A stretch of DNA of 64,000 nucleotides from Clostridia bacterium. Its GTDB lineage: Bacteria > Bacillota > Clostridia > UBA1212 > UBA1255. Made by a program: the position numbers and the translations under genes. The notes beneath the pieces are model-generated. The model made no database searches. It was not told the origin of the DNA and was given only the letters and a program-made list of their open reading frames with translations. Shown here one piece after another: positions 1 through 52,845 of the stretch; the first letter of the stretch is position 1, and each line of letters starts with the position of its first letter. The stretch lies in assembly GCA_045546695.1 (NCBI GenBank), contig JAZQDE010000008.1, positions 27,782 to 91,781 of the forward strand, in the 5' to 3' direction.

Positions 1-17
1 AGGATCATAGAATCATA

Positions 18-575
18 TTGATGCATTACGATACACTCCATCAGAGCACTGACTGGGAATATAAACATGGTAAAAATGGTTTGCCTGAGTCAGACTATAT
101 TATTGACTGGACATATGATGAAATTTGTCAATTGCGCCTTAAAGCCGGAAGGAATTTTAATAGTGAAGCTATAACAGAATATATTGTTCCAACGCTTGAA
201 GATGTCCTTATGGTATGTAATAACAGATCATTTTTTATAATGGATAAAATGAATCCGTGGGAAGAATGGGAAACAATATATAAATGTATCCTTGAAACAA
301 AATGTTATGAGCCATTTGCTTTTGCGTATAAGTTTCCGGAAGAAGAAGTATGTAGAATCAGGAAATTGATGCTAGCAGAATTTGGTAAAACAGGCCCATA
401 TTTTTATTGGCGCAGACATGCCGGATCTCTGGAACGGGAATGTCTTGGCCATGACGAGATGATAGAAGTTTTCAAACAATTTTCAGAAGGAAACAACACA
501 AACATTATGACAAATTATGTAAAAGAATTAGTTGAATATATTGATGAAAACTATAAGGAGGAAAATTTAGGATGA
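18..575 (+). CDS. Hypothetical cytoplasmic protein. It is probably truncated at the window start, because the reading frame is open back to nt 3.
   Basis: 185-aa ORF from an alternative TTG start with no in-frame stop upstream. No signal peptide. Its stop overlaps the start of the next gene (ATGA), which suggests translational coupling. I recognise no confident motif. Confidence 0.4.
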   Translation: MMHYDTLHQSTDWEYKHGKNGLPESDYIIDWTYDEICQLRLKAGRNFNSEAITEYIVPTLEDVLMVCNNRSFFIMDKMNPWEEWETIYKCILETKCYEPFAFAYKFPEEEVCRIRKLMLAEFGKTGPYFYWRRHAGSLERECLGHDEMIEVFKQFSEGNNTNIMTNYVKELVEYIDENYKEENLG

Positions 576-1732
576 AAAAACTGGTTAGTTTATTTGTTGT
601 TCTGACTTTAATTGCATCTTTTGCAATATCATCAGGTGCTGAAATCAATACAACAAGCTTTTCACAGGCAATATCAGAAATGAGTGTATTGTCATCGCAT
701 GATTTTGAAGCAGAAGACGTTGAGACAGAAGTAGCTGACACAGCTTTTGCAGATGATTGGGATGTTACACTTGGTACAGGTAATGCATTAATTTACGAAT
801 ACAATGGAAGTAAAGCTCTGATGTCATCCGGTAGCGCAATAACAGCAAACGGAACAATTAGCTACGAGCTTTCTGATGTGATTTTTGGTGAAGGTGATGC
901 ATATGCCGTTTCTATTAAGTCTACAATACCGGCAAGTGGCGCAAATTCAGTGGGACATCTCTATCTGAGGGGTTCTGAGATAATGGAACGTGATGGAAAT
1001 CCCATGAATTGGTATGACAATGACAGAAGCGGCGGTTCGTTCCGTGGAGCAAGTGGAATTGGTATCAGATGGCAGGCATCAAATGTAATTGAGGTCTCAA
1101 TAAGATTTTATGATGAAAACTCAAATACTCATGTAAATACTGCTTATGCGAGAATCAAATCTACAGGTTTCCCGTATGGCGAGACTCATACAATATCCGC
1201 TGTGGATGACGGGGAAGGAAACATAGTAATTTTCCTTAATGATGCGAAATATGCAACTATAAAATACAATAACGAGGTAAAATATGAAGATGATGATTTT
1301 GATGTTAATCAGGAAACATATTATAGTAACGTAACTGTATATGACAGTGCTGATGAGCAAGTGACACTTACATATATTGATGCAACCGATAAAAGCAATG
1401 TTAAAGTGGATAGTATTACAACAGCACTTGTTGCTAAAGAGGGTAGAGTTGCTATTGCGAATGCCGGAAGACAAGTGTATTACGATGAGATTACAGTGTA
1501 TGAAAAAGTTGAAACAGAACCCACTCCGACTCCTACTCCCGTACCTACAACAGCTCCTACCGCTACTCCTACTGTAGCACCAACAAGTGCACCGACTCAA
1601 GAGCCGACAACCGCACCGATAGAGCCGGAAGATCCTGAAACAGGTGATGGTATGTATTTCATAATACTGGCACTTGCTGTAGGCGTTATAATTTCAGGCC
1701 TTGTTATATATAATAAAAAAGTTAAGAACTAA
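572..1732 (+). CDS. Secreted, membrane-anchored surface protein: signal peptide, beta-rich ectodomain, Pro/Thr-rich linker and C-terminal TM anchor.
   Basis: N-terminus MKKLVSLFVVLTLIASFAISSGA resembles a signal peptide. The PT-repeat linker TEPTPTPTPVPTTAPTATPTVAPTSAPTQEPTTAP is encoded at about 1510-1620. The C-terminus is hydrophobic (FIILALAVGVIISGLVIY) followed by basic NKKVKN. Confidence 0.6.
   Translation: MKKLVSLFVVLTLIASFAISSGAEINTTSFSQAISEMSVLSSHDFEAEDVETEVADTAFADDWDVTLGTGNALIYEYNGSKALMSSGSAITANGTISYELSDVIFGEGDAYAVSIKSTIPASGANSVGHLYLRGSEIMERDGNPMNWYDNDRSGGSFRGASGIGIRWQASNVIEVSIRFYDENSNTHVNTAYARIKSTGFPYGETHTISAVDDGEGNIVIFLNDAKYATIKYNNEVKYEDDDFDVNQETYYSNVTVYDSADEQVTLTYIDATDKSNVKVDSITTALVAKEGRVAIANAGRQVYYDEITVYEKVETEPTPTPTPVPTTAPTATPTVAPTSAPTQEPTTAPIEPEDPETGDGMYFIILALAVGVIISGLVIYNKKVKN
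1510..1620 (+). repeat. Pro/Thr-rich low-complexity linker-coding repeat inside the surface-protein gene.
   Basis: Repeated cc(g/t)ac(t/a) codons encoding PTPTPTPVPTTAPTATPTVAPTSAPT. Confidence 0.6.
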
Positions 1733-1751
1733 TAATTCGTTCTTTGAAAAA

Positions 1752-1790
1752 AAGCCGTTATTTCAATATTGAATTAACGGCTTTTTTTAT
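1752..1790 (+). terminator. Rho-independent terminator after the surface-protein gene.
   Basis: Hairpin aagccgtta...taacggctt followed by TTTTTTT. Confidence 0.6.
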
Positions 1791-1869
1791 TGACATTATT
1801 TGTCATAATATGGTATTCTTGCAAAAAGCGACACAGATGTCGCAAATTTGAGGGAGAAGATGATACATA

Positions 1870-3297
1870 ATGCATAGCCTTGACAAAAAATGGAAAGAAC
1901 TCTTGTTTGCAGCAAACAGTTTCGGACCAAATCTATTGTTCGTTTTAATTGGCGCATATCTTACTGACGCCATAAATCCAATCGGTCTTACAGCTAATAT
2001 TGAAAATTGGAGTCTGACCGGCTATTGCCTGGTAATTCCAGTAATGTTTGGTATAACATGGGCACTTACGAAAGTATTTGACGGTCTTGTCGATATTCCG
2101 CTTGCGTATTTGACAGATAATATCCGTACGCGTTGGGGACGTCGCAGACCGATGTTTATAATTTCTCTGATACCGCAGATTATCAGCTTTGTTCTTGTAT
2201 GGACACCTTTACAGTTCCGCGAGAACAGCGTCCTCAACACATTGTGGATCGGACTTATGTTACTGATTTACTATAGTAGTTACACTTTATCGATGATTAC
2301 ATTTTTTGGATCGTCTTCATCAATCTGTAAAGACGAAGCGCAAAGAGTAAGAGTAGGTAATTTCAAATCGTTTTTTGATACAATCGGATATTGTATTGTT
2401 TACGCACTTCTGCCGATCTTCATCGGAAAAGGTATAAATATCCGCACAATTGCTTTGATTTCACTTCCTTTATTACTGACACTTCTTATACCTTTGTTCC
2501 TGATTAAAGAAGGCGAGAAATACGGTCAGGGCAAAGATTATCTTCCCGAAGCACGTGTTTCAATGAAAGACAGTTTCAGACTTACTCTTAAAAACAGACT
2601 GTTTTTAACGTGGATTATTCCAAATGGTTGCGCATATTTCGGACTTAATATGTTTTTGGCGTCACAAAATGCATTGATTTCAGGAGTAATGAATTTACCT
2701 GCACAATATGCCGCGGTTATGAACACGTGTGCTTTTGCACCTGTACCATTGATGCTTTTCATCTATTATAAAATGATTCAGAAAAAGGGCATAAGATTCA
2801 GCTATCGGGTGGCTTTGGGCACATTTGCTGTTGCAATTCTCAATTTCTGCCTTGCAAGTGAATATTTATTCCCGGACAGTATAACACCGCGAATTATAAT
2901 CGGCTGCATCGGTGGCTTCCTCGGTTCGTTTGGTATCGGTGCTTTTTTTGCAACTCCTTTCATGGTTCCGGCGCAGATTGCCGCTCTGGAATTCAAAGTA
3001 ACGGGCAAGGACCATACGGCTATGTATTTTGCGATACAGTCACTTGCAACGTCAGTAATGGCAGCTATTTCCACAGGACTGGTATACGAACAGATAAAAA
3101 ATATTGTTACACCAAAAGTAATCGATGGTGTTGCTGTTGCCGGTGAAACATGGAAAGTCGGTGCTTCTCTCGTTCCTGTAATTCTCAGTGCAACATGTAT
3201 CATTGGATTTATAATTGCAGGAAAAATGCCAAAACAATTTACACAGGAAATCGTAGAGAAAGAGATGTTACGTATTGAATCAAAAAATAAGGAGTGA
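1870..3297 (+). CDS. MFS transporter of the glycoside-pentoside-hexuronide (GPH):cation symporter family.
   Basis: About 12 predicted TM segments. The loop motif DNIRTRWGRRRP matches the GPH/MelB-type D-x-x-R-x-G-R-R-P signature. Confidence 0.75.
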   Translation: MHSLDKKWKELLFAANSFGPNLLFVLIGAYLTDAINPIGLTANIENWSLTGYCLVIPVMFGITWALTKVFDGLVDIPLAYLTDNIRTRWGRRRPMFIISLIPQIISFVLVWTPLQFRENSVLNTLWIGLMLLIYYSSYTLSMITFFGSSSSICKDEAQRVRVGNFKSFFDTIGYCIVYALLPIFIGKGINIRTIALISLPLLLTLLIPLFLIKEGEKYGQGKDYLPEARVSMKDSFRLTLKNRLFLTWIIPNGCAYFGLNMFLASQNALISGVMNLPAQYAAVMNTCAFAPVPLMLFIYYKMIQKKGIRFSYRVALGTFAVAILNFCLASEYLFPDSITPRIIIGCIGGFLGSFGIGAFFATPFMVPAQIAALEFKVTGKDHTAMYFAIQSLATSVMAAISTGLVYEQIKNIVTPKVIDGVAVAGETWKVGASLVPVILSATCIIGFIIAGKMPKQFTQEIVEKEMLRIESKNKE

Positions 3298-3334
3298 TAT
3301 ACTTTTCGTATAATTTGCGAATGAGGTTGTCACT

Positions 3335-3904
3335 ATGACTACAAAAGGCGAAACGTCCAGATTAAAGATTTTAAAAGCAGCGCATACTCTTTTCAGTAAA
3401 AAAGGGTATTGCGCTGTTACTATGAAAGATATTACAGATGCAACCGGATTTTCACGTGGCGGGCTATACAGGCACTTTTCATCAACTGAAGATATATTTC
3501 TCGAATTGATTGAAACAGAGCAAAAAAAGGCACTCGCGGCGCTTGAGGATGCTATAGAAATGGATTTACACCCTGACACAATAATACATACCTTTTTATT
3601 TAACAGAATGAAAAAAATCTGTAGTCCTGAAAAAAGCTTCGATAATGCTGTTTCTGAATTTGCTGCCAATAGTGAAAAAGGTCTTGCCGCACTAAGAAGA
3701 AGGGCGGAGATATCGATTCGGATTCTGACACGTTTGATTGAGAATGGTAATTCAAAAGGCTGTTTTTCTTGTGATAATCCCTTAGCTTCGGCAGAGCATA
3801 TTTTATGGCTTATGGAAGGCATATCAAAACATTCATCGCTCTTTGACGTAGATGACAATAAGATTAACGAACAGGTTGTATTGCTTGAAAAAATTCTTAA
3901 ATGA
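3335..3904 (+). CDS. TetR/AcrR-family transcriptional regulator.
   Basis: N-terminal HTH LFSKKGYCAVTMKDITDATGFSRGGLYRHFSSTEDIF is typical of TetR proteins. Length is 189 aa. Confidence 0.8.
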   Translation: MTTKGETSRLKILKAAHTLFSKKGYCAVTMKDITDATGFSRGGLYRHFSSTEDIFLELIETEQKKALAALEDAIEMDLHPDTIIHTFLFNRMKKICSPEKSFDNAVSEFAANSEKGLAALRRRAEISIRILTRLIENGNSKGCFSCDNPLASAEHILWLMEGISKHSSLFDVDDNKINEQVVLLEKILK

Positions 3905-3905
3905 T

Positions 3906-4997
3906 TTATTTATTCAATATATGATTTATAAATTTTTTCATTGGACAACCATCTATATCAGGACGCCAGACATCCTGCATTCTTCTGCAACCACCATTAC
4001 ACGCGCTTAAATACCGGCATGCTTTGCATTGATCAGCAAGCTTCGGTTTGTCAGTAATAAATTTTTTAATGCCGCTTGAGCAAAGCGTGTCATCAATTGA
4101 AGTATCTATTACATTTCCTGTGCAATATTCTGGTAAAACATAAAAATCACACGGATAAATGTTGCCATCTGATTCAATAACCAGTTGTGCATTACATTTT
4201 CCAGAGAAAACACAAGGGTCTGATATATTGCCCTGTAGTGCGTTAATTATTGCTGAAAACTCCCTGACTTCAAAAGGAGGACAGGAGTTTTTCCTGAAAT
4301 CATCTATCCAATAATTATAAAAATTCATAAGGAAATCCGCTAAAATATCTCTGTCTATAGTATCATTTTCACCGATGGGCGGCAGACAGGGGATAAGCTG
4401 AACATATTCAACATTAGATCTTTTGTAAAAATTATATAATTTACTTGGACTATTTAATACTGATTTAGAAAGTACAGTCAGGAAATTGACACATATGCCG
4501 GCATCAATCATCCTCCGGTATGCTTTCATAACTAAATGATGTGTAGGTGCACCATCATTAAACACTCTGTTTATATCATGACTGGAAGTATCACCGTCAA
4601 CTGATATACCGATTATACAATTGTGTCTTTTGAAAAGATCAATCCATTTTTCACCATTGATATCGTCGCTGATGCATATTCCGTTTGTCTGAAAAATGTA
4701 TTGTGCGTTAATGTTATGAATCGAAATTGCGTTAAAAAAGTAATTGTAAAATTCTATACCGGCAAGTAAAGGCTCGCCACCCTGAAAAGCAATAGTCACA
4801 ATACCCGAAGGTGATAACTTTGCTTTAATCATTAATATCAACGAATCAACGACAGTTCTTGTCATTATCATGCCGGGTTGCGCACCGCAAGACTCCATTT
4901 CTTTATAGAAACAATATTTACAGGACATCTGACAGAGTCCAGAGGCCGGTTTAACAAGAACTGTAAGTCGGTTTACTTTCAAAAAACAACACTCCAT
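3906..4997 (-). CDS. Radical SAM/SPASM-domain enzyme of the anaerobic sulfatase-maturase (anSME)-like family.
   Basis: KPASGLCQMSCKYCFY carries the CX3CX2C radical-SAM motif in an anSME-like context. The C-terminal SPASM cysteines are CNAQLVIESDGNIYPCDF and CKACRYLSACNGGC. The ORF track extends it to a TTG at 5042, but that codon lies inside the rplS promoter, so the ATG at 4997 is preferred. Neither start has a clear SD. Confidence 0.7.
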   Translation of the reverse strand: MECCFLKVNRLTVLVKPASGLCQMSCKYCFYKEMESCGAQPGMIMTRTVVDSLILMIKAKLSPSGIVTIAFQGGEPLLAGIEFYNYFFNAISIHNINAQYIFQTNGICISDDINGEKWIDLFKRHNCIIGISVDGDTSSHDINRVFNDGAPTHHLVMKAYRRMIDAGICVNFLTVLSKSVLNSPSKLYNFYKRSNVEYVQLIPCLPPIGENDTIDRDILADFLMNFYNYWIDDFRKNSCPPFEVREFSAIINALQGNISDPCVFSGKCNAQLVIESDGNIYPCDFYVLPEYCTGNVIDTSIDDTLCSSGIKKFITDKPKLADQCKACRYLSACNGGCRRMQDVWRPDIDGCPMKKFINHILNK

Positions 4998-5035
4998 GCA
5001 ATGAATTTTTTTTATTTTACATCTTTTTTTTGATG

Positions 5036-5065
5036 TTGACAAGCATAGCGCCCACGTGATATACT
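5036..5065 (+). promoter_or_regulatory. Sigma-A-type promoter of rplS.
   Basis: -35 TTGACA at 5036-5041, an 18-nt spacer, then an extended -10 TGaTATACT at 5057-5065. Confidence 0.4.
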
Positions 5066-5154
5066 TTCGAAGTTAGTGTTCAGCTACTATAGCTGACACT
5101 ATGAGTAATGGCGGTCCGCTGCATTCTTCGTAAGAACGTCAAGGTGGAAGGAGA
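5066..5154 (+). promoter_or_regulatory. Structured 5' leader of rplS (candidate L19-leader autoregulatory element).
   Basis: About 90 nt of untranslated leader with a perfect hairpin (TCAGCTActatAGCTGA at 5080-5097). A ribosomal-protein leader motif is known upstream of rplS in Firmicutes. Confidence 0.3.
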
Positions 5155-5508
5155 GTGAAGAAAATGAATAACATTATTAAAGCTGTTGAGGCTGAATACC
5201 TTAATGAATCTGCTACACCTACAGCAATCGGTGATTACGTAAAGGTTCACTTCAAGGTTAAAGAGGGTGCTCGTGAGAGAATTCAGATTTTCGAGGGTAC
5301 AGTTATTGGTAAACGCGGTCAGGGAGTATGCGAGACATTTACAGTTCGTAAACTTTCATTTGGTTGTGGTGTTGAGAGAATTTTCCCTGTACATTCACCT
5401 AAGATCGCTAAGATTGAAGTCGTAAGACACGGTAAAGTCAGAAGAGCTAAACTTTATTACCTTCGTGGTAGAGTTGGTAAAGCTGCTAAGGTTGCTGAAA
5501 AGATCTAA
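5155..5508 (+). CDS. rplS: 50S ribosomal protein L19.
   Basis: Sequence is classic L19: ...[64 protein letters not shown]... Confidence 0.95.
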
Positions 5509-6035: not shown

Positions 6036-7598
6036 ATGAATATCAAAAAAATATTAGCATTGGTTTTAGCAGTTATGATTATTTGTACTTTATTTGCATG
6101 TGGAAACGATGAAAACAAGCCCAGCCCAGAACCGGAGGCAACAATTACGCCTTTGCCGGAGCCGACAGCTCTTCCTACACTTGAGCCTCAGCCCGACATT
6201 ACAGATCCCGGCGAGCTCGTTGAATATACCGTATCACGCACGATTTCATCAAATATGGTTGTTCAAAGAAATGCATATTTCAATGTATTTGGTTGGTCTG
6301 AAAACAAAGGCGGCATTATTTATGCAGAATTTATGGGTGAAAAGCGCTACGCTGTTATAGATGATAACGGCGAGTGGTGCATTCAGTTCTCGTCACATGA
6401 AGCTACATGCGATGCACAGACTCTGAAGATTTATCCGACAAATGGTGAAGTTACTGAATATACAGATATTCTCGTCGGTGACGTATGGGTTATATCAGGA
6501 CAATCCAACGCAGAACTGACATTTTCATCAACTGTGTCTAAAACACCTGAATACAAAGACGAGATAAGCAAAGATGACAATATCAGAATTTTCACACAGA
6601 CAAGAATAGGTGTTCTGAATGTTCAGAACAAAATTGATATATCAGTTCCTCAGGCAGACGTAGTCACACGTGGATGGAAATGGCAAAGGACAACACTTGG
6701 TTCTGTAAATCCTTTTTCGGCACTTGGATATTACTTTGTAAAAGAACTCAGCAAAATTGTTACTGACGTTCCGCTTGGCGTTATTATGGCAGCTGCCGGT
6801 GGAGCAACATTACATGAACTTATGCCTGTTGAACTCGCAAAAGAATGTGGATTTTCAACAGGTCCTACAGTTCCGAACGGCGGTTTTTATAATACTCTTT
6901 TGCATCCTTTTACAAGAAATTCCATTACAGGTATGATTTACTACCAGGGCGAGAGCGAATCCAATGCAAATCAATACAAGAAATATGCTAACAATCTTAA
7001 ATTGACTGTTGAAGCATACAGAGAAGCATGGGGCGTTAATTTCCCGTTCATCAACGTTCAGCTCGCAACTCACAGGGGCGACAGTTATGCTCATTGGCCA
7101 CAGCTTATGAATTTGCGTATGGAACAGTATAATGCATACAAGATGATTGACAACTCATACATTGTTACGTCTATGGATCAGGATTTCAAAAAAGGCGATC
7201 CTGACTGGGCACATCCATATTACAAACTTGAACTCGGCCGCAGAGCTGCAACGATTGCCGCAAGTGCTATATATGAAAAGCTTGATGCAGAATATGCATT
7301 CTGCCCGGAACCATGCAATATAAAATGGGAAGGCGAATCAGTTCTTATTGAGTTCAAATATGTCGGTGACGGACTCAAATTATTGGACGGCGATGAGCTT
7401 TGTGGCTTCCAGGTTTATGATGAATTGGGAATTACATATTGTGATGCAGAGATTATAGATAAAAACACTGTTAAAATAACTGCAGATTTTGAAATAATCG
7501 GAATTGCATACGCTATGGAACATAATGCTTCACTCGATAAGGCAAATCTCGGAAACAGCATAGATTATCCGGCTCCGGCGTTTGAAATTATGAAATAA
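6036..7598 (+). CDS. Lipoprotein of the sialate O-acetylesterase-like (SASA/DUF303) carbohydrate-esterase family.
   Basis: Lipobox LFAC-G followed by a Pro/Thr-rich linker. GDVWVISGQSNAE matches the GQSN catalytic motif of 9-O-acetylesterase-type SGNH hydrolases. Confidence 0.6.
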   Translation: MNIKKILALVLAVMIICTLFACGNDENKPSPEPEATITPLPEPTALPTLEPQPDITDPGELVEYTVSRTISSNMVVQRNAYFNVFGWSENKGGIIYAEFMGEKRYAVIDDNGEWCIQFSSHEATCDAQTLKIYPTNGEVTEYTDILVGDVWVISGQSNAELTFSSTVSKTPEYKDEISKDDNIRIFTQTRIGVLNVQNKIDISVPQADVVTRGWKWQRTTLGSVNPFSALGYYFVKELSKIVTDVPLGVIMAAAGGATLHELMPVELAKECGFSTGPTVPNGGFYNTLLHPFTRNSITGMIYYQGESESNANQYKKYANNLKLTVEAYREAWGVNFPFINVQLATHRGDSYAHWPQLMNLRMEQYNAYKMIDNSYIVTSMDQDFKKGDPDWAHPYYKLELGRRAATIAASAIYEKLDAEYAFCPEPCNIKWEGESVLIEFKYVGDGLKLLDGDELCGFQVYDELGITYCDAEIIDKNTVKITADFEIIGIAYAMEHNASLDKANLGNSIDYPAPAFEIMK

Positions 7599-11503: not shown

Positions 11504-12481
11504 ATGAAAGAAGATAACAATACATACAAATTACCATATTTTGGAGAAGATTTCCTTGTATATATGGAAACTATTCTTGGAAAGTCCAAAAATACCGTAC
11601 ATGAATACAGGTATGATCTTGTTATGTTCTTCAGATTTCTTAAAGTAAGATTCAATTTAGTTGCAAAAGACCGTGAATTTGAAGATATTGATGTTTCAGA
11701 CGTAGAACTTGATATAATCAGACGTGTAAAGCTTACTGATTTGTATGCTTTTCTTAATTATATCAGCCGTGACAGGCAAGATGGACCTGCAACAAGAGCT
11801 CGTAAAGTAGCTGCACTCAGGTCTTTTTTCAAATACGCTTGTAGCAAGGCGTCTTTAATTGATGAAAATCCTGCAATTGAACTTGAATCTCCTAAAATCA
11901 CTAAAAAGCTTCCTAAATATCTTGAGATAGAAGAGAGTATCCAGTTACTGGACAGTGTTGACGGCGATTTTGTTGAACGTGATTATTGTATTCTTACTTT
12001 ATTTTTAAATTGCGGAATGCGTCTGTCTGAACTTGTTTCAATAAATGTTGCTGATATCAGGGAGGATACTTTGACAGTAGTTGGTAAAGGTGCAAAGGAA
12101 AGGACCATTTATCTTAACGATGCGTGTCTTGAGGCTATCAATAGCTATCTTGCCGTAAGACCTGACATTACAGAAACAAGCGGAAAACAACCACTTTTTG
12201 TCAGCAAATTCAAGAAGAGAATCAGTAATAAAACGGTTCAATACACTGTAAAAAAATATATAAAACGTGCCGGGCTCGATCCGACAAAATATTCCACACA
12301 TAAATTAAGACATACTGCTGCAACGCTTATGTACACGCATGGCGAAGTAGATATAAGAACACTTCAGGAAATACTTGGACACGAGAGCGTCGCAACTACT
12401 GAGATTTATACGCATATAAACAATTCAAAGCTCAAAGATGCGGTTAGTAAAAATCCGCTTGCAGGACATAAAAAGAATTAA
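11504..12481 (+). CDS. Site-specific tyrosine recombinase of the XerC/XerD family.
   Basis: C-terminal HKLRHTAATLMYTHGEVDIRTLQEILGHESVATTEIYTHI carries the R..H..R..Y catalytic signature. The N-terminal domain matches the Xer core-binding region. Confidence 0.8.
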   Translation: MKEDNNTYKLPYFGEDFLVYMETILGKSKNTVHEYRYDLVMFFRFLKVRFNLVAKDREFEDIDVSDVELDIIRRVKLTDLYAFLNYISRDRQDGPATRARKVAALRSFFKYACSKASLIDENPAIELESPKITKKLPKYLEIEESIQLLDSVDGDFVERDYCILTLFLNCGMRLSELVSINVADIREDTLTVVGKGAKERTIYLNDACLEAINSYLAVRPDITETSGKQPLFVSKFKKRISNKTVQYTVKKYIKRAGLDPTKYSTHKLRHTAATLMYTHGEVDIRTLQEILGHESVATTEIYTHINNSKLKDAVSKNPLAGHKKN

Positions 12482-12504: not shown

Positions 12505-14940
12505 ATGAAAAAACTTCACCTTATTTGCAATTCTCATCTTGATCCCGTATGGCAATGGGATTGGGACGAAGGCGCTGCTGCGGCACTGGCTACTTTTTAC
12601 AGTGCAGTCCGTCTTGCTGATAAATATGATTATATTTTTTGCCATAATGAAGTAATTCTCTACGAGTATATTGAACGATTTGATCCCGCTTTATTTAATG
12701 AAATTGCCGGTCTCGTCAAAGAAGGTAAATGGCATATTATGGGAGGTTGGTATGATCAGCCGGACTGCCTTGTACCATCCGGAGAGTCTTTTATCCGTCA
12801 GATATCGCTCGGCAAAGAATACTTCAAAGAGAAGTTCGATACATATCCAAAAACTGCAATTAATTTTGATTCCTTTGGTCATACTAAAGGACTTCCGCAG
12901 ATTCTTAAAAAATGCGGCTTTGAATCATACGTTTTCTGTCGTCCACTTAAATGGTTTGACTGGTTTAAACCACTTCCACACGGTCCGTTTACCTGGGAAG
13001 GGTATGACGGCAGCAAGATTATGGCTCTTCGTCAGGAAGATATGGAAATTTATTGTAATCAGCCCGGACAGGCCAAAGACAGCATAATCCGTAAGGCGGG
13101 TTTTTACGAAAATGACAAAGAAGATGATATTATCATTCTCTGGGGCGTTGGCAATCACGGTGGCATAAATTCGGCAAAGGATTTAGATGACATTATCACT
13201 TTGACTGATGAAAAGAAGGGAACATGGGAAATTGTACATTCCACACCCGATGATTATTTCAATGCAATTACTCCTACGCAAGACTTTTCAGACGAAATAA
13301 TCGCATTTATCAAATCATATTCATCTGCAAACGCAATCAAACTTGCTCATGACAGGCTTGAAAACGCAATATATCGTGCCGAAAGATTCTTATCAATGCT
13401 CGGAATTGCAGGTATATACGAATATAACAAAGAAGTATTCAAGAATGCTGAACGCATTTTGTGCCAGATTGAATTCCACGACGTACTGTCAGGCACATCA
13501 ATTAAAACAGGTACTGATTCATCAATTGAAAAAGCGATGTCAGCTATACAGCAAGTAAATGCTGAGTTCTATAACGGATATTTCAGATTCAGCGGAATGC
13601 TGCCAAAAGCAAAAGACGGCGACGATTGCTTTGTTGTACTTAACCCTCATCCATACGAGGTGACAACTGTTGTTGAAACAGAGCTTTTTGAACCCAGTCC
13701 TAACAATTTTGAGTTTAATATGTATGATTCAAATAATAATCCTGTTGATTGTCAGGTAATATTGGAAGAATCAATTATTAATATGACGCGCAGAGTCCGT
13801 CTGATTTATAAATACACGTATCCAGCAATGTCTGTAACACAATTTGGTATACATTCAAAAATTGTAGATTACAAAACAGAGCGGTTTACGGGCGACAATT
13901 CAGATGAAGATATAATCTTAAAAGACAAATACAAGCAGATAAAGATCAGCCGTGAAACAGGTCTGATTGAAAGTTATGTCAGCAATGGCACTGAATATGC
14001 TCACAGCGGTCTTTTTTCACCCGTGATGTTTGATGATAACGAAGATCCATGGGGATGGAGATTAAATAAACTCGGTGAAAATTATCGCAATATGCCACTT
14101 GATAAATCCGGTAAAGGTTTATTTGAAAATCTGAAAGGCGTGACTGTTTTAGAAAACGGTCCACTGCTCACACAAGTTGAATCATTATTTACTTTGGATG
14201 AATCACATGTTGTTGTAAATTACAAATTTTACCATGATTTGCCATATATTGATGTAAATATTCACGTAATTTGGAACAGCAAATGTAAAGGTCTTAAAAT
14301 TCAATTGCCACTTAATGGCAAACGAGGATTTTTCACCCAGGCTGCTTTTGGTACACAATATAATAAGAATGATGGCGATGAAAAGCCCGGAAACAGATTT
14401 GTCGGCGTTGAAAACGGTGAAAAAGCATTTGTTGTTTACAACAGAAGCGGAATTCATTCATATTCAATGCTGGGAAGAGATTTGTATCTGACGCTACTTA
14501 ATGGTTCTGCATATTGTGCGCACCCGACAGATCCCGGCACGCCGATTATCAAAGACAACACGCGTTATACAGGTTTTATTGAAATTGGCACACATGATTT
14601 TCAGTTACGGATTGGCACTAATGATGTATGTGAATGTGAAAAAACAGCACAGCAATTCAATCAGCCTTTATACAGCGTCCTGACGTTCCCGCACGGCAAT
14701 TCAACTCCGCCGGAGAAAATTATCACACTGTCGAACGAAAACGTCGTAATCAGTGCATTCAAGCGCAGAAATAACGGTACGTACGTTATAAGGCTCCATA
14801 ACAATTATAAAGCATCCACATCTACAACGATTAATATTAACGGAATATCAAAAGAAATTAAATTTAAAAAATATGGATTCAGGACGTTTATATACAACGG
14901 AAAGACAATACGCGAGTCAAAAGATGCGGCTTTATATTGA
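12505..14940 (+). CDS. Glycoside hydrolase family 38 alpha-mannosidase / mannosylglycerate hydrolase-like protein.
   Basis: N-terminus LICNSHLDPVWQWDWDE...GGWYDQPD...GESFIRQISLG parallels the GH38 (MngB-type) H-x-H-x-D...GPWY.Q.D motifs. Length is 811 aa. Confidence 0.75.
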   Translation: MKKLHLICNSHLDPVWQWDWDEGAAAALATFYSAVRLADKYDYIFCHNEVILYEYIERFDPALFNEIAGLVKEGKWHIMGGWYDQPDCLVPSGESFIRQISLGKEYFKEKFDTYPKTAINFDSFGHTKGLPQILKKCGFESYVFCRPLKWFDWFKPLPHGPFTWEGYDGSKIMALRQEDMEIYCNQPGQAKDSIIRKAGFYENDKEDDIIILWGVGNHGGINSAKDLDDIITLTDEKKGTWEIVHSTPDDYFNAITPTQDFSDEIIAFIKSYSSANAIKLAHDRLENAIYRAERFLSMLGIAGIYEYNKEVFKNAERILCQIEFHDVLSGTSIKTGTDSSIEKAMSAIQQVNAEFYNGYFRFSGMLPKAKDGDDCFVVLNPHPYEVTTVVETELFEPSPNNFEFNMYDSNNNPVDCQVILEESIINMTRRVRLIYKYTYPAMSVTQFGIHSKIVDYKTERFTGDNSDEDIILKDKYKQIKISRETGLIESYVSNGTEYAHSGLFSPVMFDDNEDPWGWRLNKLGENYRNMPLDKSGKGLFENLKGVTVLENGPLLTQVESLFTLDESHVVVNYKFYHDLPYIDVNIHVIWNSKCKGLKIQLPLNGKRGFFTQAAFGTQYNKNDGDEKPGNRFVGVENGEKAFVVYNRSGIHSYSMLGRDLYLTLLNGSAYCAHPTDPGTPIIKDNTRYTGFIEIGTHDFQLRIGTNDVCECEKTAQQFNQPLYSVLTFPHGNSTPPEKIITLSNENVVISAFKRRNNGTYVIRLHNNYKASTSTTININGISKEIKFKKYGFRTFIYNGKTIRESKDAALY

Positions 14941-51194: not shown

Positions 51195-52463
51195 TCAAAG
51201 ATATTTCTCAATATATTTTTTGCCATCGCCATAAGTGTCAATGATATAATCCATGTCTTTGTCGCCTCTGCCTGACAGACAAACAAGAATTGATCCTGTA
51301 TTGTGCGTTTTTGCATACTTAATAGCGTATGCAAGTGCATGTGAACTCTCAATAGCAGGAATAATACCTTCAAATCTTGACAACAGATAAAAAGCTTCAA
51401 GTGCTTCTTCATCATCAGCTGTAACATAATTAACTCTGCCACAGCTATGCAGATATGCGTGTTCAGGACCTGCAGCAGGATAATCAAGTCCGCTGGCAAC
51501 TGAATATACAGGAGCCGGCTCGCCATTTTCATCCTGAAGCATAATACTCTCAAAGCCATGCATAATGCCCTTTGTACCATATGTTATAGAAGCTGCATGA
51601 TCACCCATCTGTGTACCTCTTCCAAGAGGTTCAACTCCATAAATGTTTACAGGTTCATTTAAGAATGCTGAAAACATACCCATAGAGTTTGAGCCGCCTC
51701 CAACACAAGCAACAACATTATCAGGAAGAAGTCCTGTCATCTCAACGAATTGATCCTTTGCCTCATATCCTACAACTGACTGGAAATCTCTTACCATCAT
51801 CGGGAACGGATGCGGTCCTACGCATGAGCCGATACAATAAATAGCATCCTTATACTCATTTTTATATGCTTCAAATGCACTGTCAACAGCTTCTTTAAGC
51901 GTCTTAAGACCATGTGTAACCGGAACAACGTTTGCACCGAGGAGCTTCATTCTTGCAACGTTAGGTGCCTGTTTTGCGATATCTACTTCGCCCATATATA
52001 CGTCACATTCCATACCAAAATATGCAGCCGCAGTAGCGATAGCAACACCATGCTGTCCTGCACCTGTCTCTGCAATCAGCTTCTTTTTACCCATAAATTT
52101 TGCAAGTAAGCCTTCGCCCATGCAGTGATTGAGCTTATGTGCTCCTGTATGGTTCAAATCTTCTCTTTTAAGATAAATCTGACATTTTCCAAACAAATTG
52201 GAAAGTCTATCACAATGATATACAGGAGTAGGTCTTCCCTGGAATTCTTTTCTGATTCTTCTGAGCTCGCTTATGAACTTTGCACTGTGACAGATAGTTT
52301 CATAGCTGTCAGTAATTTCCTGCATAGCAACCTGCAGATCAGCAGGTAAAAAAGAACCGCCGAAATCACCGAATTTACCATCTTCTGACGGGAAATCTTT
52401 TAAATAATTATCAAAATCTTTATAAGTCTTTTTATCCATATATATTACCTCCGTTAAATTCAA
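51195..52463 (-). CDS. trpB: Tryptophan synthase beta-chain-type PLP enzyme (stand-alone TrpB).
   Basis: HTGAHKLNH carries the PLP lysine. GGGSNSMG and the glycine-rich loops are typical of TrpB. Preceded by a T-box leader. Confidence 0.75.
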
Positions 52464-52519: not shown

Positions 52520-52845
52520 CACCTCTTGTTAAAAAAAGTCTTTGTCCTTAAAACCATAGGACAAAGACTGATAATCTCTGCGGTGCCACCTAAATTGACG
52601 TTTGTCACGCCCACTCATTAGTATACAAACATATACTGTCCAACTTACGTATGGAAACACGTCGACCATTACTCGCTTTAATGCTTTCCTGTCGCCCTCA
52701 TAAGTCCATTCACAGATATAATGCATATAACCTCACACCGGCCGGCTACTCTCTGAAATGATAAACATCTGCTACTCTTCTTAATCACAGGTTTTCAATA
52801 TTCGATTTTTTTAATTAAACAACATTAAATATTCGTTGTCAAGCA
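52520..52845 (-). promoter_or_regulatory. T-box riboswitch leader (probably tRNA-Trp-responsive) with terminator, upstream of trpB.
   Basis: Minus-strand sequence AATTTAGGTGGCACCGCAGAG (reverse complement of 52566-52586) matches the T-box consensus AATTAGGGTGGTACCGCG. The terminator hairpin agtctttgtcc...ggacaaagact plus U-run is at 52520-52559. A candidate promoter (TTGACA -35 and TTTAAT -10 on the minus strand) is at about 52842-52814. Confidence 0.65.

Follow-up and report, generated by a model that had tools for sequence, protein, structure and literature searches.

We analysed a 64-kb stretch of DNA, referred to here as the window, in which a gene for a radical SAM (rSAM)/SPASM protein lies near the left edge, between an MFS-TetR gene pair and rplS. 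The features that bear on this gene are the following, by position in the window:

3..575, forward strand: GDPD-family gene truncated at the window edge, encoding the C-terminal ~190 residues; fourth gene of a conserved sulfatase cluster
572..1732, forward strand: 386-aa surface protein, homologous to but shorter than the product of the last cluster gene(s) in relatives
1747..1788, no strand assigned: terminator-like hairpin with A-run and T-run flanks (bidirectional), 21-nt arms that are 95% complementary, AAAAAAAGCCGTTATTTCAAT / ATTGAATTAACGGCTTTTTTT
1790..1819, forward strand: promoter-like site of the MFS-TetR pair, TTGACA, 18 nt, TATTCT, with TG before the second hexamer (10/12; a consensus match only)
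1828..1843, no strand assigned: palindrome GCGACA-N4-TGTCGC, candidate TetR operator, 6-nt arms that are 100% complementary, 4 nt apart
1870..3297, forward strand: MFS_2 (GPH-like) transporter, 475 aa (PF13347, 98.4 bits against a cut-off of 27)
3335..3904, forward strand: TetR-family regulator, 189 aa (PF00440, TetR_N, E 1.4e-16, profile positions 1-47 of 47)
3906..4982, reverse strand: predicted anaerobic sulfatase-maturating enzyme (anSME; rSAM/SPASM), 358 aa from TTG 4982, the maximal ORF reaching to TTG 5042
5014..5042, reverse strand: promoter-like site of the rSAM gene, TTGTCA, 17 nt, TAAAAT (10/12; a consensus match only), its -35 hexamer covering TTG 5042
5036..5065, forward strand: promoter-like site of rplS, TTGACA (5036-5041), 18 nt, TATACT, with TG (11/12; the best site in the scanned region)
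5155..5508: rplS, after a gap of 112 bp from 5042

In the list of open reading frames, the rSAM/SPASM gene is the maximal ORF 3906-5042 on the reverse strand, encoding 378 aa from the first TTG. The ORF matched the Pfam families Radical_SAM (E 9e-12) and SPASM (E 4.6e-10), and the protein contains KPASGLCQMSCKYCFY together with both SPASM cysteine groups. The top three NCBIfam models were all anSME models (257, 215, and 140 bits), with TIGR03942 the best at 256.8 bits, and the protein aligned with the anSMEcpe structure 4K37 at E 6e-53 (32% identity, 324 aligned positions). These matches and the retained cysteines bear out the anSME-type identity proposed by the initial annotation. The curated equivalog cut-offs were not reached for either TIGR03942 (257 against 349.45 bits) or NF010321 (215 against 441), as might be expected of an anSME-like enzyme that is uncoupled from sulfatases at this locus and acts on another protein or a small molecule tied to the MFS transporter and TetR. 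Sub-threshold TIGR03942 scores are common, though, among relatives that lie directly beside Cys-type sulfatases (261-332 bits), so that the cut-off of 349.45 bits excludes the whole clostridial clade and is no sign of a different function.

The closest characterised counterpart in our comparison was anSMEcpe from Clostridium perfringens (PDB 4K36-4K39; NF010321/TIGR03942). Both are single-polypeptide rSAM and SPASM proteins (358 versus 370 aa) with a CX3CX2C motif, eight auxiliary-cluster cysteines, and a Cys-Asp pair at the third Aux I ligand. The alignment spans structure residues 4-336 and places C37-x3-C41-x2-C44 (378-aa numbering) on Cys15/19/22 of anSMEcpe, the CX3CX2C radical SAM cluster motif. 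In anSMEcpe, Aux I is held by Cys255/261/276/330 and Aux II by Cys317/320/326/348 (PMC5715301). The residues C277/C283/C298/C352 aligned directly with the four Aux I ligands, and C339/C342/C348 with Cys317/320/326, while C366 lies just beyond the aligned stretch, at the place expected for Cys348, and is invariant in the clade alignment. Y46 and D299 aligned with Tyr24 and Asp277; D299 is the retained Asp after the third Aux I cysteine and is likewise invariant in the clade alignment. According to the 2013 anSMEcpe structure paper, Tyr24 and Asp277 are reportedly active-site residues near the substrate C-beta, and we take Y46 and D299 to play the equivalent role. The retention of all anSME cluster ligands, along with this Asp, argues against an enzyme that has been uncoupled from sulfatases. 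The protein differs from anSMEcpe in that the identity is only 32% and the last two cysteines are separated by a linker 4 residues shorter.

AtsB of Klebsiella pneumoniae is a Ser-type anSME that serves a periplasmic Ser-type sulfatase. Its family, NF010308, matched far less well (140 bits, cut-off 484), and the sulfatases neighbouring the relatives of our protein differ from the AtsB client in being of the Cys-type, carrying C-x-P-x-R or C-x-A-x-R in 17 of the 17 inspected. In the closest of these sulfatases, the Sulfatase domain begins at residue 6, which leaves no room for a signal peptide. The reaction class and the three-cluster architecture of AtsB are the same as those of the enzyme described here (PMC10114670).

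The initial annotation had set aside TTG 5042 as a start because of the rplS promoter, and this TTG indeed immediately adjoins the -35 hexamer TTGACA at 5036-5041. The ATG at 4997 that was preferred instead is the poorer choice compared with a third start, TTG 4982, which has GGAG 9 nt upstream and gives 358 aa. Relatives conserve this start too, as TTG-AAA preceded by a GGTGA SD, and the gene callers on contigs of the same species also picked TTG 4982 (358 aa). Translation is therefore likely to begin at TTG 4982, and not at 5042 or 4997, which would place the N-terminus 16 residues ahead of the first cluster cysteine. The promoter-like sites of rplS and the rSAM gene stand back to back. As the region contains 13 such sites against 13.2 in shuffled sequence and is thus not enriched in them, the promoter assignments rest on position. 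Rfam gave no ribosomal-protein leader between the rplS promoter and rplS, the sole match in the window being a T-box.

The product of 1870-3297 did not reach the cut-off of the GPH model TIGR00792 (47.4 against 231.35 bits). Of the neighbours initially described, the convergent TetR gene and a transporter are both present, the latter as a member of the broader Pfam family MFS_2. The TetR gene, whose product reached no specific NCBIfam equivalog, begins 37 bp past the MFS stop codon on the same strand and is probably co-transcribed with the MFS gene. The palindrome at 1828-1843, which follows the promoter-like site and precedes the MFS start, may serve as the TetR operator. With a promoter-like site and a candidate operator of its own, the pair would form a separate, self-regulated transcription unit. 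Its GC content (0.37-0.40) is no different from that of the flanks, and composition thus gives no support for a recent horizontal acquisition.

The direct abutment of the MFS-TetR pair on the 3' end of the rSAM gene would favour a substrate connected with the transporter. No homologue of either gene was found in the cluster of any relative locus, however, and the two genes are therefore no guide to what the rSAM clade does. The MFS gene occurred at the rSAM locus only on contigs of the same species (L006, L087, and L090), and the trio of MFS, TetR, and rSAM genes, for which synteny in relatives had been suggested as a check, is not syntenic there. At this position, relatives have further surface-protein genes, whose place the pair takes in this species. 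We consider that the pair lies outside the maturase function, but it might import the substrate of a cytoplasmic sulfatase.

An ORF signature scan of the 64 kb and phmmer/jackhmmer searches with the window ORFs identified no sulfatase, as the initial annotation had stated for the part in view and as would fit an uncoupled enzyme. The gene cut by the left edge changed this picture. The partial GDPD at 3-575 matched the 366-aa GDPD of locus L005 with a phmmer E of 1.3e-88, with equivalent matches in L001, L004, L007-L010, and L012, and a full-length near-orthologue, P0121 (368 aa), carries PF03009. The adjacent 572-1732 product begins, as read from its translation, with a signal-like segment, ends in a membrane anchor, and has a linker rich in Pro and Thr. 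A Pfam scan returned no family for it at the family cut-off, and phmmer related it to the proteins of 523-546 aa encoded directly next to the rSAM gene in L001, L004, L005, L007-L009, and L012 (E 1e-39 to 2e-45). The hairpin at 1747-1788 is intrinsic-terminator-like and is predicted to end the sulfatase-cluster transcript.

In the GTDB representative genomes, the best match to the rSAM protein was 54% identical. The eight closest relative loci (rSAM identity 50-54%) comprise six distinct arrangements (L001/L010, L004, L005/L012, L007, L008, and L009), and all eight have the same cluster order: GDPD, sulfatase, LysR, GDPD, a 562-aa protein, in some a 641-aa protein, and a 523-546-aa protein, with the rSAM gene convergent. 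The client of an anSME, a sulfatase with a C/S-x-P/A-x-R motif, is encoded in the same genome and usually close by. Over a wider set, a sulfatase was present at 74 of the 86 loci with a relative of the rSAM gene and directly adjacent to it in 62. The 12 loci that had none in the sequence covered, which are consistent with uncoupling, include several short contigs.

The region beyond the left edge could be approached through a metagenome contig, L091, which comes from a different sample and overlaps the window by only 144 bp (window 1-144, 99.3% identity). L091 is 99.7% identical to L006 over a 320-bp overlap, and L006 is 99.8% identical to the window over 3.6 kb. Leftward, L091 encodes a LysR protein and an 81-residue C-terminal piece of a sulfatase, the motif region of which lies off the contig. 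Residues 388-467 of the L005 sulfatase match this fragment at 53% identity (E 3e-30), and Pfam SGSH_C matched it at 29.9 bits. The stop codon of the fragment maps to about position -1506 of the window, approximately 5.4 kb from the stop codon of the rSAM gene. Another contig, L093, came up when metagenome contigs were searched with the GDPD fragment, but it was given no weight as evidence on the left flank. The similarity of its GDPD is confined to the catalytic core (75% DNA identity over 315 bp), and the gene ahead of it encodes a DEAD-box helicase in place of LysR and a sulfatase; we regarded this GDPD as a more remotely related paralogue or orthologue. An exact 44-nt pattern from L091 had no match in the JGI metagenomes, the 81-aa fragment gave no candidates in the protein database, and an exact look-up of the MFS protein returned no record. 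Exact look-ups of the 386-aa protein and TetR returned only contigs of at most 4.1 kb, reaching at most 176 bp left of the window.

From the conserved cluster order and L091, the partner sulfatase lies very probably about 1.5 kb past the left edge of the window; the genome of the window would then have an L091-like left flank, and the same-species sulfatase presumably carries a Cys-type motif. A sulfatase gene just outside the window was the very finding that the initial annotation had named as capable of overturning its view of an anSME lacking a substrate gene, and that view very probably does not hold. The rSAM gene would have appeared orphaned because the window edge cuts its gene cluster. 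The cluster would read GDPD, sulfatase (ending near -1506), LysR, GDPD (3-575), and surface protein (572-1732). Maturase and sulfatase would lie ~5.4 kb apart in separate convergent transcription units, unlike an arrangement in which the client is adjacent; in this respect, with the presumed client ~5 kb off in a convergent operon, the locus would also differ from that of anSMEcpe.

Taken together, we consider it highly probable that the gene at 3906-4982 on the reverse strand encodes a Cys-type anSME with the cytoplasmic sulfatase of the edge-cut cluster as its client. Its sequence features identify it as a divergent yet conventional member of the anSMEs. In these enzymes, the N-terminal CX3CX2C motif holds a [4Fe-4S] cluster at which SAM is reductively cleaved to a 5'-deoxyadenosyl radical. 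This radical removes a C-beta hydrogen from the C-x-P-x-R cysteine while the sulfatase is still unfolded. As the electron is passed on through the two SPASM [4Fe-4S] clusters, the cysteine is converted to formylglycine, which serves the sulfatase as its catalytic residue. Here, the protein modified in this manner would be the cytoplasmic sulfatase encoded in the cluster.

Against this background, an anSME-like enzyme working on an unrelated substrate seems improbable, given that the window opens inside a sulfatase cluster and that a 99%-identical contig bears the sulfatase C-terminus. We also considered whether this rSAM/SPASM enzyme could instead mature a RiPP or another peptide, with a precursor gene that is located at a distance or so short as to escape notice, since RiPP pathways rely heavily on rSAM/SPASM enzymes (PMC10114670). 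The protein shares the rSAM/SPASM fold and cysteine motifs with such maturases (DynA, YhhB, GrrM/OscB, PapB, and the SCIFF maturase; matches of 54-135 bits), and these matches are significant though weaker than those to anSMEs (DynA 135 bits, TIGR04083 128 bits). All peptide-maturase NCBIfam models stayed at or below 135 bits, far under their cut-offs, and the top anSME model scored about twice as high as the best of them (257 versus 135 bits). Moreover, RiPP maturases have a precursor peptide gene beside them and usually an N-terminal peptide-recognition domain; the start only 16 residues before the first cysteine leaves, judged by length, no room for such a domain. Consistent with the earlier observation that no small precursor ORF is visible, no conserved small ORF accompanied the rSAM gene in the window or at the loci of relatives, where sulfatases were found instead at 74 of 86. 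Lacking a precursor gene and an N-terminal extension and having a sulfatase as the genomic partner, the enzyme differs from rSAM/SPASM RiPP maturases, and we regard this function as very improbable.

Equally hard to credit is a decaying or non-functional remnant of a cluster rearrangement (insertion of MFS-TetR and loss of surface-protein genes): the cluster is rearranged compared with the closest relatives and the start codon is TTG, but the ORF is intact and of homologue-like length, all invariant columns of the clade alignment and all cluster ligands are kept, the relatives show TTG with an SD to be ancestral, and near-identical copies occur across many metagenome samples, with the adjacent TetR gene on 15 contigs.

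As a predicted routine anSME, the enzyme alone is of little importance. For an apparent orphan enzyme near the edge of a window, our analysis suggests that a truncated ORF at that edge should be checked first. A whole clade of sulfatase-adjacent maturases in gut Clostridia escapes the curated anSME models TIGR03942 and NF010321, and gut-microbiome surveys of sulfatase maturation capacity that apply these cut-offs would therefore undercount it. Proteins of the missed clade are annotated merely as 'SPASM domain-containing protein'.

The cluster served by the predicted maturase combines a Cys-type sulfatase devoid of a signal peptide, two GDPD-like phosphodiesterases, LysR, and two to three paralogous surface proteins that belong to no Pfam family. 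We found no described counterpart for it, and it has so far been seen only in MAGs of ruminant-gut Clostridia. One speculative idea, which we hold to be rather unlikely, is that the cluster constitutes a new pathway for the use of a phosphodiester-linked compound that bears sulfate, for example a sulfated glycerophospho-glycan or the head group of a lipid, for which MFS_2/TetR was recruited as an importer in this species. The GDPD-sulfatase-surface-protein cluster may merit study of its own.

The initial annotation had placed a transporter gene, a TetR gene and a convergent radical SAM gene side by side, and all three open reading frames were recovered together with their Pfam families.

1870-3297, plus strand: MFS gene, 475 aa (MFS_2)
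3335-3904, plus strand: TetR gene, 189 aa (TetR_N)
3906-5042, minus strand: radical SAM gene as longest ORF, 378 aa, convergent (Radical_SAM and SPASM)
5155-5508: rplS, beyond the radical SAM gene

One base separates the convergent TetR and radical SAM stop codons (3902-3908). Because no terminator-like hairpin was found between these stops, transcription of each gene probably runs on into the other.

The radical SAM/SPASM protein had been assigned to the type of anaerobic sulfatase-maturating enzymes (anSMEs), and this identity was borne out. anSME models took the top three places in the NCBIfam ranking (TIGR03942, 256.8 bits; NF010321, 215 bits; NF010308, 140 bits) and the best peptide-maturase model, DynA, reached 135 bits, the protein staying below the curated cut-offs of all four. 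The alignment with the structure sequence of the Clostridium perfringens anSME (anSMEcpe, 4K37) covered residues 4-336 at 32% identity (E 6e-53). In the 378-aa numbering, the radical SAM cluster ligands Cys15/19/22 of anSMEcpe corresponded to C37, C41 and C44, the Aux I ligands Cys255/261/276/330 to C277, C283, C298 and C352, and the Aux II ligands Cys317/320/326 to C339, C342 and C348 (ligand list from PMC5715301). C366 was found at the expected position of Cys348 in anSMEcpe. The Tyr following CX3CX2C and the Asp following the third Aux I Cys are likewise kept; according to a 2013 anSME structure paper, these two residues reportedly sit at the substrate C-beta. All the listed Cys residues, the Tyr and the Asp were unchanged throughout an alignment that included 15 close homologues, and nothing in the sequence suggests a pseudogene or altered chemistry.

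Relatives of the radical SAM protein were encoded in 86 loci. A sulfatase gene was present in 74 of these, several of the 12 loci lacking it being short contigs. It was directly adjacent in 62 of the 86, mostly immediately downstream on the same strand (57/62). A Cys-type signature stood where expected in all 17 neighbouring sulfatases that were aligned (CCPAR, CCPSR, CGPMR, CMPAR, CLPAR, CIPAR, CGPCR, CAPTR, CSPAR, CGPAR, CTPSR or CAASR). Sulfatase-adjacent relatives (L005, L009, L019, L030, L032 and L039) scored 261-332 bits with TIGR03942 against a cut-off of 349.45; the low score of the window protein thus characterizes its clade and does not point to another function. Public records give these relatives no name beyond 'SPASM domain-containing protein'.

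Clostridia MAGs of ruminant and other animal guts supplied the closest homologues (50-54% identity). In all eight such loci (L001/L010, L004, L005/L012, L007, L008 and L009, amounting to six distinct arrangements), one conserved operon faces the radical SAM gene in convergent orientation. It encodes, in order, a GDPD-like (phosphodiesterase-like) protein, a Cys-type sulfatase of 467 aa, a LysR regulator, a second GDPD-like protein, a protein of 562 aa, in some loci one of 641 aa, and finally one of 523-546 aa, whose gene meets the radical SAM gene 3' end to 3' end. The operon spans 8307-16174 in L005, and the part of it that falls within the window lies at 3-1732. The other flank differs, being rpoB, a thioredoxin-like gene or, in the window, rplS, so that the sulfatase operon is the only conserved linkage of the radical SAM gene. 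The last two or three operon proteins (523-641 aa) are paralogous and secreted or anchored, and they matched no Pfam family. In the closest-cluster sulfatase, the Sulfatase domain starts at residue 6 and leaves no space for a signal peptide; the client would thus be cytoplasmic, which suits a maturase that acts in the cytoplasm. A more distant GDPD gene on a JGI metagenome contig (L093, 545-3805) is preceded by genes for a DEAD-box helicase and a secreted alpha/beta-hydrolase-like protein, not by LysR and sulfatase genes, and the GDPD gene thus occurs outside the sulfatase cluster as well.

That no sulfatase was in view holds within the 64-kb window: the sulfatase signature occurred in no real ORF, and neither phmmer nor jackhmmer found a sulfatase match among the window ORFs. 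The window, however, begins mid-operon, since the edge-truncated ORF 3-575 matched the C-terminal half of the second operon GDPD (E 1.3e-88) and ORF 572-1732 encodes a surface protein of 386 aa that is homologous to, but shorter than, the product of the last operon gene (E 1e-39 to 2e-45). A Logan metagenome contig of 1,922 bp (L091) extends the cluster leftwards beyond the window edge. It is 99.3% identical to window positions 1-144 and 99.7% identical over 320 bp to the same-species contig L006, itself agreeing with the window at 99.8% across 3.6 kb. Two genes lie upstream of the GDPD start in L091, a LysR gene of 293 aa and another represented by its final 81 codons. The 81 encoded residues align with residues 388-467 of the L005 sulfatase at 53% identity (E 3e-30) and attain the Pfam SGSH_C cut-off over the profile end. 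The sulfatase stop would lie at about -1506 in window coordinates. Its distance to the radical SAM stop would then be 5.4 kb, matching the 5.40-5.49 kb in L004, L005 and L008. The notion of a radical SAM gene lacking a sulfatase partner was thereby very probably overturned, in the manner that the initial annotation itself had foreseen. We infer that the window's own genome carries this left flank and that its sulfatase bears the Cys motif. The final 24 bases of L091 (1899-1922) differ from the window and L006 and cut the GDPD reading frame short with a stop codon; misassembly at the end of the contig is the probable cause.

A RiPP maturase reading was rejected: the protein has neither a precursor gene nor an N-terminal extension, and peptide-maturase models gave half the anSME scores. 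By every testable sequence feature, the protein is very probably a Cys-type anSME with predicted maturase activity. The sole membership feature lacking is a score above the curated cut-off, which the sulfatase-adjacent relatives miss likewise.

The MFS-TetR pair occupies the site taken in the relatives by the gene for the 562-aa protein and, in some loci, also that for the 641-aa protein. Homologues of both genes were found in the same-species contigs only (L006 and L087-L090) and were absent from every cluster of the relatives, and synteny of the whole trio thus did not extend to these. The label 'GPH symporter' did not hold, since the GPH model gave just 47 bits where its cut-off is 231, making 'MFS_2 family, substrate unknown' the better label. 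Three elements precede the MFS start at 1870.

1747-1788: strong bidirectional terminator-like hairpin, after the 386-aa gene
1790-1819: promoter-like site (consensus match), after the hairpin
1828-1843: perfect palindrome GCGACA-N4-TGTCGC, between the promoter-like site and the MFS start

This series suggests that the pair forms a unit of its own, and the palindrome is a reasonable candidate for the operator of the downstream TetR. Base composition did not differ between the pair and its flanks. The transporter might conceivably supply the cytoplasmic sulfatase with substrate.

The start of the radical SAM gene is most likely TTG 4982, giving 358 aa. Homologues are 355-364 aa long and span just 94-96% of the 378-aa ORF; the relatives start at a conserved TTG-AAA preceded by GAAAGGTGA, and L005 has an in-frame TGA two codons upstream of this TTG. 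The window has the equivalent TTG-AAA at 4982 with GGAG 9 nt upstream, and gene callers picked the same codon in the same-species contigs. ATG 4997, preferred in the initial annotation, overlaps the Shine-Dalgarno-like element and is a possible but less favoured start. TTG 5042 is unlikely, forming the first three bases of a promoter-like -35 hexamer.

5042-5014, minus strand: radical SAM promoter-like site, TTGTCA, 17 nt, TAAAAT
5036-5065, plus strand: rplS promoter-like site, TTGACA, 18 nt, TATACT

Shuffled sequence gave such consensus matches at least as often, and the promoter argument therefore leans on site position. The two sites stand back to back (5014-5065), their -35 hexamers overlapping on a near-palindromic TTGACAA/TTGTCAA, and the divergent genes could thus compete for RNA polymerase. 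The rplS leader of about 90 nt (5066-5154), between promoter-like site and rplS start, contains a small hairpin (5109-5121) and matched no Rfam family at the gathering threshold, ribosomal-protein leaders included.

The remaining window encodes housekeeping functions (glyA, iscS/iscU, efp, addB, recO, era, ybeY, ftsH, tilS, dnaB, rplI, ssb and aroK), a 2-oxoacid:ferredoxin oxidoreductase and others. The gene for a PLP-dependent enzyme of the PALP family (51195-52463) has a T-box leader upstream (52554-52797, minus strand; RF00230, 112.8 bits). Amid the housekeeping genes are those for a lipoprotein-like SASA-family carbohydrate esterase (6036-7598), a tyrosine recombinase (Phage_integrase, 11504-12481) and a GH38 alpha-mannosidase (12505-14940); this set hints at a glycan-foraging capacity of the organism.

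For the family, the sub-cut-off scores of proteins with sulfatase neighbours indicate that the curated anSME models undercall this clostridial clade. The GDPD-sulfatase-LysR-GDPD-surface-protein cluster of animal-gut Clostridia MAGs is apparently undescribed, and this uncharacterised cluster is perhaps worth a separate look.
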